From Microbacterium sp. (GTDB lineage: Bacteria > Actinomycetota > Actinomycetes > Actinomycetales > Microbacteriaceae): a DNA stretch of 64,000 nt. How positions within the stretch are numbered: the stretch's first letter is position 1; each line of letters begins with the position of its first letter. The notes under the pieces are model-generated. The model saw only the letters and a program-made list of their open reading frames with translations. It made no database searches and was not told the origin of the DNA. The translations under genes and the position numbers were made by a program. Below, piece after piece: positions 35,394 to 39,139 of this stretch. Location of the stretch: NCBI RefSeq assembly GCF_047607225.1, contig NZ_JASGDO010000067.1, positions 3,238 through 67,237 of the forward strand, given 5' to 3'.

Positions 35394-36682
35394 CGGCCCG
35401 GTGGAGCCGGTGGGTGCGCTGGAGCGCGGCGGCCGTGGCGTTCCTCATCGTCCTCGGGGGGACGACGGCCGCGACGGTGCCGCCCGACGACGAGGCTGAC
35501 ATCGATCCCGTGCAGTCGCTGGAGTACTGGCTCGATGACTACGGGATCCGCACCGCGTGGGAGACCACGCGGGGCGAGGGGGTCACGATCGCCGTCATCG
35601 ACACCGGTATCGGCAAGGGCCCGGTGGAGTTCGACGGGGTGCGAGGCGGCGCCGACTTCTCGGGCGTCGGCGCGCAGGACGGACGCAATCCTGTCGGAGC
35701 CGTCGACTCGAACCACGGCAGCTGGGTGGCCTCGCTCGCCGCGTCGCGGGGCACCGGGGACGGGGCGGGGATGCTCGGGGTCGCCCCCGAGGCGACGCTC
35801 CTGTCGCTGTCGGTCGGTTTCGGCTCATCGGCGGCCGTGCCATTCGTCGACCAGATCGCCGACGCCATGCGCTGGGCGGTCGATCACGGCGCCGATGTCA
35901 TCAATCTGTCCTTCACCACGAACACCCTGGAGTGGGATCCGAGCTGGGACGAGGCATTCCTCTATGCGTTCCAGCACGACGTGGTCGTCGTGGTCGCCGC
36001 AGGGAACCGGGGCACCGGTACCGACGAGGTGGGTGCCCCCGCGACGATCCCCGGCGTGCTCACGGTGGGCGGCGTCGACCGATCCGGGAAGGCCAGCGTC
36101 GAAGCGTCGACGCAGGGGATCTCGATCGGGATCATGGCCCCGAGTGAGGAACTGCTCGGGGTGTCGCCCGACGGTCAGATCGTGATCTGGGACGGCACGA
36201 GCGGGGCGGCCCCCATCGTGGCCGGGATCGCCGCGCTCGTCAGGGCGGCCCACCCCGAGCTCGACGCCGACAACGTCATCAACCGGATCATCCGCACGGC
36301 ACGATCGACTCCCGAATCCCGGGCCAAGCCGGCGCTGTACGGCTACGGCCTGGTCGATGCCGCCGCCGCGGTGTCGGCGAAAGTGGCCCGGGTCGATGAG
36401 AACCCGATGGGGAGCCTGACGGAGTGGATCCGGCTGTACCGGCGCCAGGAGGTCAAGCCGCAGCCGACGCCCACCGTGGCGCCTGTCGTCGTCCCGCCGC
36501 TTCCCGCTCCGGAGGCGGCGACGCCGCCGGAATCGGCGCTCCTGCCCAGCGCGGACAGCCTGAGGTACGGCACCGTGCCGCTCTTGGCCGGTACCGTGGT
36601 GGCTATAATGGTGGGGCTCGGCGTCACCGCTGCTGCCCGGCGAGTTAGATCGGCGCGCGCCTCCCGCACGTCGAGCCGTTGA
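35390..36682 (+). CDS. Membrane-anchored S8 (subtilisin-family) serine peptidase, mycosin-like architecture
   Basis: Signal/TM region at the N-terminus. Catalytic triad contexts VIDTGIG (Asp), NHGSWVAS (His), GTSGAAPIVAG (Ser). Pro-rich linker and C-terminal TM anchor LLAGTVVAIMVGLGVTAAARR. ATGA overlap with the DUF501 stop. Confidence 0.88.
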   Translation: MTARWSRWVRWSAAAVAFLIVLGGTTAATVPPDDEADIDPVQSLEYWLDDYGIRTAWETTRGEGVTIAVIDTGIGKGPVEFDGVRGGADFSGVGAQDGRNPVGAVDSNHGSWVASLAASRGTGDGAGMLGVAPEATLLSLSVGFGSSAAVPFVDQIADAMRWAVDHGADVINLSFTTNTLEWDPSWDEAFLYAFQHDVVVVVAAGNRGTGTDEVGAPATIPGVLTVGGVDRSGKASVEASTQGISIGIMAPSEELLGVSPDGQIVIWDGTSGAAPIVAGIAALVRAAHPELDADNVINRIIRTARSTPESRAKPALYGYGLVDAAAAVSAKVARVDENPMGSLTEWIRLYRRQEVKPQPTPTVAPVVVPPLPAPEAATPPESALLPSADSLRYGTVPLLAGTVVAIMVGLGVTAAARRVRSARASRTSSR

Positions 36683-36702
36683 TTCAAGGAGTTCCGCGTC
36701 CT

Positions 36703-38163
36703 GTGACCAGCACCGCGACCAGCCCTGCGTTCGCCCCCGCGACCAGCGCTGTGCCCAAGATCCTCATCGTCGGAGGCGGCTACGCCGGCTTCTACACCGC
36801 GTGGAAGCTCGAGAAGCACCTCCGGAAGGGCGAGGCGGAGGTCACGATCGTCGACCCGCTGCCGTACATGACGTACCAGCCCTTCCTTCCCGAGGTGGCC
36901 GCGGGGGAGATCGAGGCGCGTCACGTTGTCGTCGGCCTGCGTCGACACCTCAAGAAGACCCGTGTCGTGGTGGCGAAGGTCACCGGCATCAACCACGCCA
37001 CGCGTACCGCGACCATCACGCCCGAGGTGGGCGAGCCGTGGACCGAGACGTACGACCAGATCGTCGTGACCGCCGGAGCGGTCTCGCGTACGTTCCCGAT
37101 TCCCGGCATCGCCGAGAACGCGATCGGTCTGAAGACGATCGAGGAGGCCGTCGCGATCCGTGACCGCATCCTCACGAACTTCGATCGCGCCGCCAACCTG
37201 CCGGCCGGCCCGGAGCGCGACCGCCTGCTCACCGTCGTCGTCGTCGGCGGCGGCTTCGCCGGTATCGAGGTGTTCGCCGAGACTCGCGCGCTCGCGTCGT
37301 CCCTTCTCAAGCTCTACCCGCAGCTGCGCTTCGAGGACACGCACTTCCACCTCATCGAGGCGATGGGGCGCATCATGCCCGAGGTGTCGCTGAAGACCAG
37401 CGAGTGGGTCCTCAAGGACCTCGCCAAGCGGGGCGCGAACGTCCACCTCGACACGCAGGTGACCGGTGCCGTCGACGGCAACGTCGAGCTCTCCACCGGC
37501 GAGGTCATCCCCACCGACCTCATCATCTGGACCGCCGGTGTCATGGCGAACCCGACCGTCGTGCGCGGCGGTGACCTCCCCGTCGAGGAGCGCGGCCGGA
37601 TCCGCACCCGTGCCGACCTCCGCGTCGGCACGCCCGACGAGGCCGTCGAGGGCGCCTGGGCGGCGGGAGACGTCGCGGCCGTTCCCGACCTCACCGGCGC
37701 CGGAGTCGGCGGATACTGCGTGCCCAACGCTCAGCACGCCGTCCGTCAGGCCAAGCTGCTCGCCAAGAACCTCGTCGCCGTCATGCGCGGCGAGGTGCCC
37801 CGTGAGTACATCCACAAGAACCTCGGTGCGGTGGCCGGTCTCGGTCTCTACAACGGTGTCTTCCAGTCCGGCAAGATCGCGCTCAAGGGCTTCATCGCCT
37901 GGGTCGCCCACCGGGGCTACCACGGCTTGGCGATGCCGTCGTGGGAGCGCAAGTGGCGCGTGATCGGCGACTGGTGGCACAACTTCTGGCTCAACCGCGA
38001 CAACGTGTCTCTGCAGACCGTGCAGAATCCGCGGTACGTCTTCGAAGAGTTCGCCGCTCGCCCGCGTCCGGCGGTGGCAGAGGCCCCGGCTGAGCCCGCG
38101 GCGAAGAAAGCACCCGCCAAGAAGGCGGCCGCCAAGGAGCCCGCCGAGACCACCGCGCGCTGA
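36703..38163 (+). CDS. ndh: Type II NADH dehydrogenase (NDH-2)
   Basis: Two Rossmann motifs ILIVGGGYAGF and VVVVGGGFAGIE. C-terminal membrane-association region with an Ala/Lys/Pro tail. GTG 36703 downstream of SD AAGGAG; TTG 36679 is an alternative start. Confidence 0.9.
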   Translation: MTSTATSPAFAPATSAVPKILIVGGGYAGFYTAWKLEKHLRKGEAEVTIVDPLPYMTYQPFLPEVAAGEIEARHVVVGLRRHLKKTRVVVAKVTGINHATRTATITPEVGEPWTETYDQIVVTAGAVSRTFPIPGIAENAIGLKTIEEAVAIRDRILTNFDRAANLPAGPERDRLLTVVVVGGGFAGIEVFAETRALASSLLKLYPQLRFEDTHFHLIEAMGRIMPEVSLKTSEWVLKDLAKRGANVHLDTQVTGAVDGNVELSTGEVIPTDLIIWTAGVMANPTVVRGGDLPVEERGRIRTRADLRVGTPDEAVEGAWAAGDVAAVPDLTGAGVGGYCVPNAQHAVRQAKLLAKNLVAVMRGEVPREYIHKNLGAVAGLGLYNGVFQSGKIALKGFIAWVAHRGYHGLAMPSWERKWRVIGDWWHNFWLNRDNVSLQTVQNPRYVFEEFAARPRPAVAEAPAEPAAKKAPAKKAAAKEPAETTAR

Positions 38164-38172
38164 CCCGCGGGC

Positions 38173-38178
38173 TATCGT
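38173..38178 (+). promoter_or_regulatory. -10 box TATCGT, 8 nt before the tRNA 5' end
   Basis: TAnnnT hexamer directly after the ndh stop codon. Would give a tRNA precursor with almost no 5' leader. Confidence 0.4.
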
Positions 38179-38186
38179 GGGCGCAG

Positions 38187-38259
38187 GCCCCCGTAGCCCA
38201 ATGGCAGAGGCAGGCGACTTAAAATCGCTTCAGTCTGGGTTCGAGTCCCAGCGGGGGTA
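38187..38259 (+). tRNA. tRNA with anticodon UAA (nominally Leu, decodes UUA) but class-I geometry (5-nt variable loop)
   Basis: Hand-folded cloverleaf: GCCCCCG-TA-GCCC-AATGGCAG-AGGC-A-GGCGA-CTTAAAA-TCGCT-TCAGT-CTGGG-TTCGAGT-CCCAG-CGGGGGT-A. Canonical T-loop GTTCGAGTC, U33, anticodon at 38220..38222, A73, G1:U72, no encoded CCA. -10-like TATCGT lies 8 nt upstream. Isotype is uncertain because bacterial tRNA-Leu normally has a long extra arm. Confidence 0.7.
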
Positions 38260-38350
38260 CGTCCGTTCTCTGCCGAGGAGCGCGCAGCAGTGTGATCTCC
38301 TCGACCGCGTGGTGTGTGGAGAGCGTCGCGGGCGGAGGTCACGCTTTCGA

Positions 38351-38356
38351 TAGGCT
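38351..38356 (+). promoter_or_regulatory. -10 box TAGGCT for orphan gene 38375..39139 (18-nt leader with SD GGGAGGA)
   Basis: TAnnnT hexamer plus an SD-containing short leader. Confidence 0.4.
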
Positions 38357-38374
38357 CCCACGCGGGAGGAAGAG

Positions 38375-39139
38375 ATGCCGGTGCGCACGGTACGTCAGGA
38401 GTTGGAGGCCGCGCCCAGCCGGTTCGAGGCGCTGGAGGTCTTCGCGGCGGTGGCGACCGAGGCTCGTCTCGTCTCTGAGGACGGGACGCAGTGGTACACG
38501 GCCTGGGATCGGGCGATGCAGGAGCTGGCGCCGATTGGGTTCGTCCCCGAGTGGGGGCCGGTGATGCTGAGCCACCTCGGCGACTTCTGCTCCGATGTCG
38601 CGGGGAGCGCGGAGCGTGGACATGGCGTGCGGCGCACGACGACGGTGGTGCGGGGACGCTCGGCCTTTCCGTTCCACGAGTTCGAAGCGCTGACGGCCAG
38701 TCCGACACTCGCGCACGCCGACGCCGTCGACGCCATACGCGGCGTACGGGGCGAGCTGGAGACCTGTGGTCTCATCTTCGCCGAGCGCTGGGCACGGATG
38801 ATCCATATCGACATGGCGGAGGAGACGGCGTTCGTCCCCGATCCGAGCCCCGTCGGAGGGATGACGTTCTCGCCGCACGCGCACGAGCTCGGCGATTGGC
38901 TCGAGCTCAGCGTCGCGGAGTTGGCGGAGGGTCGGGGGAACCTCGTCGTCTTGGGCAAGCGTTTCGCCCACGACACGGAGCTCATCGAAGACCCGCACGA
39001 CGAGGGAGCCCTGCTCTCCGCGCATCCCGTCACCGGGGACCCGTGGATTTTGTGGCTCGTCAGCGGGGGAGTGCTGTTACGATTCCAGCTCCTCACGTCC
39101 CCGGTGTCTGAGCGCGACGAGTCCCGCCGGCTCACCTAG
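38375..39139 (+). CDS. Hypothetical cytoplasmic protein (254 aa, no recognised domain)
   Basis: Chosen over three competing long ORFs here because its composition is balanced (E/L/A/V/D) while the antisense frames are Ser/Arg-rich. SD GGGAGGA 5 nt before the ATG and -10 TAGGCT 18 nt upstream. Contains the only in-frame TTA codon I found in the window (39077..39079). Confidence 0.65.
   Translation: MPVRTVRQELEAAPSRFEALEVFAAVATEARLVSEDGTQWYTAWDRAMQELAPIGFVPEWGPVMLSHLGDFCSDVAGSAERGHGVRRTTTVVRGRSAFPFHEFEALTASPTLAHADAVDAIRGVRGELETCGLIFAERWARMIHIDMAEETAFVPDPSPVGGMTFSPHAHELGDWLELSVAELAEGRGNLVVLGKRFAHDTELIEDPHDEGALLSAHPVTGDPWILWLVSGGVLLRFQLLTSPVSERDESRRLT

Follow-up and report, generated by a model that had tools for sequence, protein, structure and literature searches.

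Can a transfer RNA (tRNA) that lacks the long extra arm be the everyday reader of the leucine codon UUA in a bacterium, or does such a form point to a regulatory, mischarged or decaying gene? This question is raised by a tRNA gene located just downstream of ndh in a 64,000-nucleotide (nt) stretch of Microbacterium sp. DNA (hereafter the window; contig NZ_JASGDO010000067.1, positions 3,238 to 67,237; G+C content 69.6%). An earlier note on this DNA had described a class-I-shaped tRNA with the anticodon UAA and had considered it structurally atypical. Our analysis indicates that the gene very probably encodes a functional type I tRNA-Leu(UAA) that was inherited vertically and is the normal UUA reader of Microbacterium. 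The gene forms a cloverleaf, is under purifying selection, is orthologous to the Leu-TAA tRNAs of Mycobacterium tuberculosis and Mycobacterium smegmatis, has a leucine-type body and has been inherited at a conserved locus. The class I shape and the leucine-like features of the earlier description therefore stand, whereas the specialised, mischarged and decaying readings do not.

Structure of the tRNA gene

The gene and its diagnostic elements are located as follows.

38187..38259, plus strand: type I (short-variable-loop) tRNA-Leu(UAA) gene, 73 nt (ARAGORN, Rfam RF00005, orthologues and covariation)
38196..38211, plus strand: Leu-type D arm (Rfam alignment and 78 orthologues)
38220..38222, plus strand: anticodon TAA (U34 A35 A36) in the loop CTTAAAA (sequence; placed at position 34 by ARAGORN, with which the Rfam alignment concurs)
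38231..38235, plus strand: variable loop TCAGT, 5 nt, positions 44-48 (U44 C45 A46 G47 U48) (sequence)

The acceptor stem is GCCCCCG/CGGGGGT with a G1:U72 pair, and the anticodon stem and T arm are GGCGA/TCGCT and CTGGG-TTCGAGT-CCCAG, respectively. The D arm, GCC(C)-AATGGCAG-(A)GGC, has a stem of three base pairs (G10-C25, C11-G24 and C12-G23), a C13/A22 mismatch and the loop A14 A15 U16 G18 G19 C20 A20a G21. U48 of the variable loop pairs with A15 (trans-Levitt pair). The discriminator A at 38259 is followed by CGT, so the gene does not encode CCA, and the G3:U70 pair of alanine identity is absent.

ARAGORN reports tRNA-Leu(taa) at 38187..38260 as the only tRNA in the window. The full-model match to Rfam RF00005 (positions 1-71) reaches 57.0 bits (E=1.2e-9), above the curated threshold (gathering score 29), and places the anticodon at TAA; the 13:22 position of the D stem is the single non-standard pair in this alignment. 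Sequence, ARAGORN and Rfam thus agree with the class-I-shaped 73-nt cloverleaf with UAA anticodon, 5-nt loop, A73 and no CCA that had been described, and the gene passes both ARAGORN and the covariance model. The likeness of its acceptor end to Leu(UAA) was also correct, as the G1-U72 pair of E. coli tRNA-Leu(UAA) is confirmed in the literature (PMC6614811). The minimum free energy fold of this tRNA does not give a cloverleaf (z = -2.5), as often happens when a single tRNA sequence is folded, and we therefore relied on the covariance model and on comparative covariation.

A class II tRNA has a variable arm of more than 10 nt that forms a stem-loop. The variable loop of the window tRNA has 5 nt and those of all 78 orthologues described below have 5-6 nt. 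The combination of a leucine anticodon, UAA, with a 5-nt variable loop containing nucleotide 48 is that of a type I tRNA-Leu.

Conservation and leucine identity

The comparison within Microbacterium starts from the conserved 5' neighbour.

36679..38163, plus strand: ndh, type II NADH dehydrogenase, start codon uncertain (Pfam Pyr_redox_2, homologues)

The best 120 ndh homologues are 80-94% identical to the window protein and, where an organism is named, almost all come from Microbacterium. Four ndh loci were compared, namely those of a close metagenome-assembled genome (MAG; L001/L002), Microbacterium lacticum (L003/L004), Microbacterium jejuense (L005) and Microbacterium terrae (L006). They share the gene order eno, divIC, DUF501, S8 peptidase and ndh, and in 4/4 of them ARAGORN finds a 73-75-nt tRNA(UAA) directly after ndh. 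With a further genome (L181), the anticodon UAA is found at the 3' side of ndh in five Microbacterium genomes. The tRNA bodies of these genomes are about 97% identical, while their flanks have diverged to the point of being unalignable. The changes that do occur preserve the structure: a T-stem pair is U:A or C:G (the latter in L001), pair 1:72 alternates between G:U and G:C, and the D loop is 1 nt longer in M. terrae. The tRNA gene is thus under strong purifying selection. A near-invariant body between diverged flanks, with structure-preserving changes, rules out the decaying copy that the earlier note had considered, and the conservation check it had proposed for the ndh 3' flank finds the gene kept, with compensatory changes. 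Stem-breaking changes and patchy presence, the marks of a pseudogene, are not seen; the gene is present in every Microbacterium locus examined.

Two of the ndh homologues, P0010 and P0018, are 87-92% identical to the Microbacterium protein and carry the labels "Sphingomonas sp. BLCC-B65" and "Coraliomargarita sp. W4R53 (plasmid, 3.15 Mb)"; the records behind them are probably contaminated or mislabelled public entries. The slot 3' of the tRNA (38260-39139 in the window) holds unrelated genes in different Microbacterium species. In the window it encodes a 254-aa protein with no Pfam match, in L001 an NlpC/P60 gene and a 200-aa gene, and in M. lacticum a DEAD-box helicase; it is empty in M. terrae. 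Insertion hot spots beside tRNA genes typically show such variable content. An att-like repeat of the tRNA 3' end was sought within the window, and none was found.

To see how far the gene extends, we scanned viral and cellular genome collections with a pattern of class-I geometry (CTTAAAA, 12-14 nt, GGTTCRANTCC), which gave at least 120 matches in each; the resulting proportions describe a sample and not a census. Actinomycetota account for 91/120 of the cellular matches listed. They include Mycobacterium, Mycolicibacterium, Nocardia, Rhodococcus, Gordonia, Tsukamurella, Dietzia, Williamsia, Corynebacterium, Arthrobacter, Pseudarthrobacter, Rothia, Citricoccus, Nocardioides, Intrasporangium, Nonomuraea, Kibdelosporangium, Nakamurella, Actinomyces and Arcanobacterium, as well as Bifidobacteriaceae, genera of Microbacteriaceae, Acidimicrobiia and low-GC freshwater lineages. 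Nearly all actinobacterial matches listed are single-copy and have a common body, GCCCCCRTAGCCCAAYYGGCAGAGGCA...CTTAAAA...A73. Searches with the window proteins (tblastn) place the tRNA beside ndh, a few kb at most from the DUF501/S8 peptidase block, or both, in dozens of the listed genomes. This linkage to ndh, the S8 peptidase or DUF501 is found in Microbacteriaceae, Micrococcaceae, Nonomuraea, Kibdelosporangium, Nocardia, Rhodococcus, Corynebacterium, Nocardioides, Bifidobacteriaceae and others. Its occurrence in many actinobacterial families argues for an ancient, vertically inherited core gene, and a tRNA with a phylum-wide orthologue at a conserved locus can hardly be called structurally atypical.

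We then aligned 78 distinct single-copy orthologues to the cloverleaf with a 3-bp D stem. In this alignment 99.7% of the cells are paired, and 14/20 pairs show changes on both sides. Double-change cells number 236, compared with 64 in shuffles; none of 500 shuffles reached any of the observed covariation measures, and slid controls drop to 33-53% paired. The comparative support for the cloverleaf is therefore far above chance. Invariance at C32, A37, A38 and the TTCRANT T loop is uninformative here, as these positions were forced by the scan pattern. No variation is seen at unforced positions that include U8, C12, C13, A14, A15, G18, G19, A20a, G21, A22, G23 and U48, and 77/78 orthologues have A73.

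Several of these positions bear on the amino acid identity. The determinants of E. coli leucyl-tRNA synthetase (LeuRS) are A73, U8-A14, A15-U48, G18G19 and A20a (PMC9976931, PMC6614811), and the window tRNA carries all of them. Similarity of the D arm to phage tRNAs alone was not discriminating, and this comparison was replaced by an identity panel of 40 M. tuberculosis tRNAs with the anticodon masked, taken with the M. smegmatis set from published tRNAscan-SE predictions (PMC11541572 supplement). The best match is Leu-TAA (59/69 identical, D arm 19/19, score 43), followed by Leu-CAA (55/70, score 38); the best non-leucine match is Lys-TTT, with a score of 25.6. The AATGGCAGA D loop is also found in the M. 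tuberculosis class II tRNAs Leu-CAG and Leu-GAG. The body of the window tRNA is thus common only to other leucine isoacceptors. Together with the LeuRS determinants, this makes charging with another amino acid, as the earlier note had envisaged, very unlikely.

The same mycobacterial sets show that the short form is nothing unusual. In both species, Leu-TAA and Leu-CAA have 74 nt, whereas Leu-CAG, Leu-GAG and Leu-TAG have 83-89 nt; each leucine anticodon is represented by a single gene, and for TAA this is the 74-nt form (PMC11541572 supplement). With the type I tRNA-Leu(CAA) of Streptomyces coelicolor, these tRNAs contradict the statement, made in the earlier note, that bacterial tRNA-Leu species are class II. 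In Actinomycetota, a variable loop of 5 nt stands where the long extra arm would be in the isoacceptors of the UUR box, namely UAA and, where it was examined, CAA.

Expression, UUA usage and alternative explanations

One short motif upstream of the gene could serve in transcription initiation.

38173..38178, plus strand: TATCGT, a possible, weak -10-like hexamer (TANNNT), 8 nt upstream of the tRNA

A TANNNT hexamer at this spacing is present in the window and L001 (TATCGT) and in M. lacticum (TAGCCT), and absent in M. jejuense and M. terrae. The TATCGT box reported earlier therefore exists, but it is a weak argument for expression, as the motif is confined to the closest relatives and a sigma-70 consensus scan is empty. 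The stop codon of ndh is located 23 nt upstream of the window tRNA, with no terminator hairpin between them (38164-38186). M. lacticum (L003:11615-11675), M. jejuense (L005:11455-11515) and M. terrae (L006:11442-11502) have a G+C-rich hairpin between ndh and the tRNA, which is likely the ndh terminator. In the window and its closest relative the gap is 23-32 nt and has no hairpin, an arrangement in which the tRNA and ndh may share a transcript. Co-transcription followed by RNase P processing thus appears as possible as transcription from a weak promoter of its own.

The codon that this tRNA reads is almost unused. The window contains 2 TTA and 79 TTG codons in about 15,300, so that UUG is about 40 times commoner. 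In the window and 13 Microbacteriaceae loci together, the open reading frames (ORFs) that pass a filter on G+C content at third codon positions comprise about 55,700 codons, of which 10 are TTA triplets. Spurious 5' ORF extensions account for most of these 10, and one is the anticodon loop of the tRNA itself. Another TTA is found at 39077..39079, in the species-specific gene directly 3' of the tRNA. Neither conserved TTA codons nor a set of conserved TTA-bearing regulators was seen, although 10 triplets are too few for this negative to be firm. The UUA reader is strictly conserved although TTA is practically unused in Microbacteriaceae loci.

We propose the following course for a type I tRNA-Leu(UAA) in Microbacterium. 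The tRNA would be transcribed from its weak own promoter or jointly with ndh, trimmed, and completed by post-transcriptional addition of CCA, since none is encoded. It would then be leucylated by the single actinobacterial LeuRS, an enzyme that the window does not encode and that would need neither to read the anticodon nor to contact an extra arm. Recognition would instead depend on the acceptor end, on a variable loop no shorter than 5 nt and on a tertiary core made up of U8-A14, A15-U48, A20a and the elbow between G18G19 and the T loop. The charged tRNA would decode UUA and probably also UUG by wobble.

Four other explanations deserve consideration. A regulatory tRNA similar to bldA, whose abundance or maturation gates a few UUA-containing genes, would fit the extreme rarity of UUA and the plausible TTA codon in the adjacent gene, and Streptomyces bldA provides a precedent. 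However, the gene is universal and positionally conserved in non-developmental Actinomycetota, a distribution that implies a housekeeping decoder, and no set of conserved TTA-bearing regulators emerged from the 10 triplets. Chandra & Chater also limit the developmental role of bldA, probably, to Streptomycineae, because TTA has no positional bias elsewhere. With TTA almost absent and unpatterned, the specialised role suggested in the earlier note lacks support, and we consider it quite improbable. A role outside bulk UUA decoding would account for strong purifying selection in the face of near-absent UUA: the tRNA could be the main UUG reader, if Microbacterium has no Leu-CAA, given the 40-fold excess of UUG, or it could donate its aminoacyl group to a non-ribosomal transferase. 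Both Leu-TAA and Leu-CAA are nevertheless kept in M. tuberculosis and M. smegmatis, and no transferase gene is linked to the locus. To our knowledge, the canonical T arm and elbow are also unlike those of tRNAs with non-proteinogenic roles. We therefore rate such a role as very improbable.

The class I shape itself could be taken as a sign of another identity, in which a tRNA of, for example, Phe, Lys or Asn type has acquired a UAA anticodon and UUA is reassigned or mistranslated. Mistranslating tRNAs are known in Streptomyces, and the best non-leucine matches in the M. tuberculosis panel are Lys-TTT and Asn-GTT. These matches score at most 25.6, against 43 and 38 for the two leucine tRNAs; the D arm is of the 3-bp leucine type, while other class I tRNAs have a 4-bp GCTC/GAGC stem; and the alanine pair is missing. 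Moreover, five leucine anticodons, belonging to two codon boxes, occur on the same short body. Such a range fits only a synthetase to which the anticodon is irrelevant, and this is LeuRS. Another identity is thus extremely improbable. There is next to no chance that the gene is a decaying or phage-derived remnant beside an integration hot spot, with a canonical tRNA elsewhere doing the decoding. Unrelated genes follow the tRNA in different Microbacterium species and very similar tRNAs are common in phage contigs, as such a remnant would have it, but the sequence is near-invariant, changes in a compensatory manner and occupies the same locus across the phylum. No att-like repeat is present in the window, and in M. 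tuberculosis and M. smegmatis the short form is the only Leu-TAA gene.

Several points weigh against regarding the gene as the normal, leucine-charged UUA reader. Expression and charging with leucine in Microbacterium are suggested by relatives and by published biochemistry, and that biochemistry concerns the CAA isoacceptor of Streptomyces and no type I tRNA with a UAA anticodon (PMC6614811). A study of M. tuberculosis LeuRS, conducted with a long-arm isoacceptor only, argued that recognition of the arm matters for the class II CAG isoacceptor. The status as sole UUA reader is likewise suggested by relatives, and Microbacterium may also possess a Leu(UAA) of class II or a Leu(CAA). The sigma-70 consensus scan and the upstream alignment gave no convincing conserved promoter. 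Finally, TTA is too rare for the meaning of UUA to be read from alignments; a Codetta-style reading found two TTA codons with aligned orthologue residues, and these conflict (A/A/R and L).

Even with these points considered, a type I tRNA-Leu(UAA) serving as the normal UUA reader remains the explanation that we favor. The locus itself would then be a routine tRNA-Leu(TAA) gene, of the sort that every annotation pipeline reports for actinobacterial genomes, and not a candidate for recoding or regulation.

Short-arm leucine tRNAs in other genomes and known systems

The scans also returned short-arm leucine tRNAs outside Actinomycetota. Phage arrays (L007, L016, L021, L022, L079 and L112) contain Leu-type tRNAs of 73-77 nt with the anticodons UAA, CAA, UAG, GAG and AAG, while the Ser and almost all Tyr tRNAs in these arrays stay long-armed (79-94 nt). 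The cultured Pseudomonas syringae phage PE09 (L247:1501-1577) encodes, beside an 85-nt Tyr tRNA, a Leu(UAG) of 74 nt whose variable loop is TCAGT, as in the window. Full-length matches annotated as tRNA-Leu come from cultured phages that infect Pseudomonas syringae, Vibrio, Myxococcus, Synechococcus/Prochlorococcus, Lactobacillus and Bacillus. The Gram-negative hosts of such phages stand in contrast to the failure of E. coli LeuRS to charge Streptomyces type I tRNA-Leu (Fan et al.).

Among the cellular matches listed, 29/120 are from outside Actinomycetota, and several of these have a Leu-type short-arm body, for example GGGGGAGTAGCCCAATTGGCAGAGGCA.... They include matches in Planctomycetota (L131, L167, L194, L206 and L243), Rokubacteriota (L172), a Deltaproteobacteria MAG (L200), L151 and L143. 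Some are surrounded by tRNA arrays, with 25 tRNAs in Nostoc (L149), 20 in L243 and 10 each in L218 and L235, and these four may be prophages. In Streptomyces olivoverticillatus (L142:1740-1771), a 75-nt short-arm tRNA(UAA) has a different body (GCCCGAGTGGCGCAACTGGAAGACGC...). As the known Streptomyces UUA reader, bldA, is class II, this tRNA could be a second UUA decoder that bypasses bldA control. A class I tRNA with a UAA anticodon in Blautia schinkii (L174:1417-1447) has an ordinary 4-bp D arm (AGCTCAGTGGGTAGAGC) and not a Leu-type body.

The kind of tRNA described here is already known, as its orthologue is annotated and expressed in model mycobacteria: the MenT3 paper detected 45/45 M. 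tuberculosis tRNAs by 3'-OH tRNA-seq and attributed long variable loops only to tRNA-Leu-2, -3 and -5. A short-loop Leu(TAG) in mycobacterial tRNA clusters was reported by Kirsebom's group. Type I tRNA-Leu has nonetheless been regarded as rare, restricted to "some Streptomyces and human mitochondria" (PMC6614811), and a 2023 review assigns the long arm to all leucine tRNAs outside animal mitochondria (PMC9976931). The literature that we found does not state explicitly that the UAA isoacceptor is type I throughout the phylum. All of Actinomycetota, M. tuberculosis included, breaks the rule that bacterial tRNA-Leu is invariably class II, and the breadth of the short-arm leucine family in phages and certain other phyla has apparently been under-described. 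In M. tuberculosis, LeuRS is a drug target.

It is tempting to go further and ask whether short-arm tRNA-Leu is far more widespread than the literature holds, an idea that we put forward tentatively and that is somewhat more likely to fail than to hold. Our data suggest that type I is the ancestral and universal UUR-box form in Actinomycetota, that it also occurs in some Planctomycetota, Rokubacteriota and other genomes, and that phage arrays often contain it with leucine anticodons of every kind, cultured phages of Pseudomonas, Vibrio, cyanobacteria and Firmicutes included. If this is true, either many non-actinobacterial LeuRSs must accept an arm-less tRNA-Leu or phages gain from the arm-less form, for instance through a smaller gene or escape from host defences that target tRNAs. 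The window gene would then be one instance of an under-described class.

How does the window tRNA compare with known systems? Its closest counterparts are the Leu-TAA tRNAs of M. tuberculosis H37Rv (trna12, 1177396-1177469, 74 bp) and M. smegmatis mc2 155, which are its orthologues. They have an identical D arm, a variable loop of the same 5-nt class, the CUUAAAA loop and A73, and the sequence differences are compensatory stem changes. Compared with the M. tuberculosis tRNA, the D loop in the window is 1 nt shorter (AAT-GG versus AATTGG), and pair 1:72 is G1:U72 instead of G1:C72; the neighbouring genes differ in M. tuberculosis. The S. coelicolor type I tRNA-Leu(CAA), described by Fan, Huang, Ji & Wang (Nucleic Acids Research, 2019), is likewise actinobacterial, has a 5-nt variable loop (ACAGC there, TCAGT in the window) and is leucylated by the single LeuRS of S. 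coelicolor (ScoLeuRS), for which the minimal loop is 5 nt including nucleotide 48 (PMC6614811). It relies on U8-A14 and on this loop of at least 5 nt, coexists with class II leucine tRNAs and is not charged by E. coli LeuRS in vitro (PMC6614811). Its anticodon is CAA, unlike the UAA of the window tRNA, and the UAA isoacceptor of Streptomyces, bldA, is class II. bldA shares with the window tRNA the anticodon, the rare codon and a high-GC actinobacterial host, while the long variable arm and documented developmental regulation belong to bldA and not to the window tRNA.

Outside Actinomycetota, E. coli tRNA-Leu(UAA) of the leuZ type has the same kind of acceptor end (GCCC.../...GGGU-A73 with G1-U72), the A37A38 loop, a 3-bp D stem with a 13:22 mismatch, A15-U48, G18G19 and A20a, and differs in its extra arm of more than 10 nt, compared with 5 nt in the window. 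Animal mitochondrial tRNA-Leu(UUR) resembles the window tRNA in its class I shape, its UUR box and the A73 and A14 determinants. However, it is organellar and floppy, is served by its own mitochondrial LeuRS, is not charged by ScoLeuRS and has no sequence relationship to the window tRNA.

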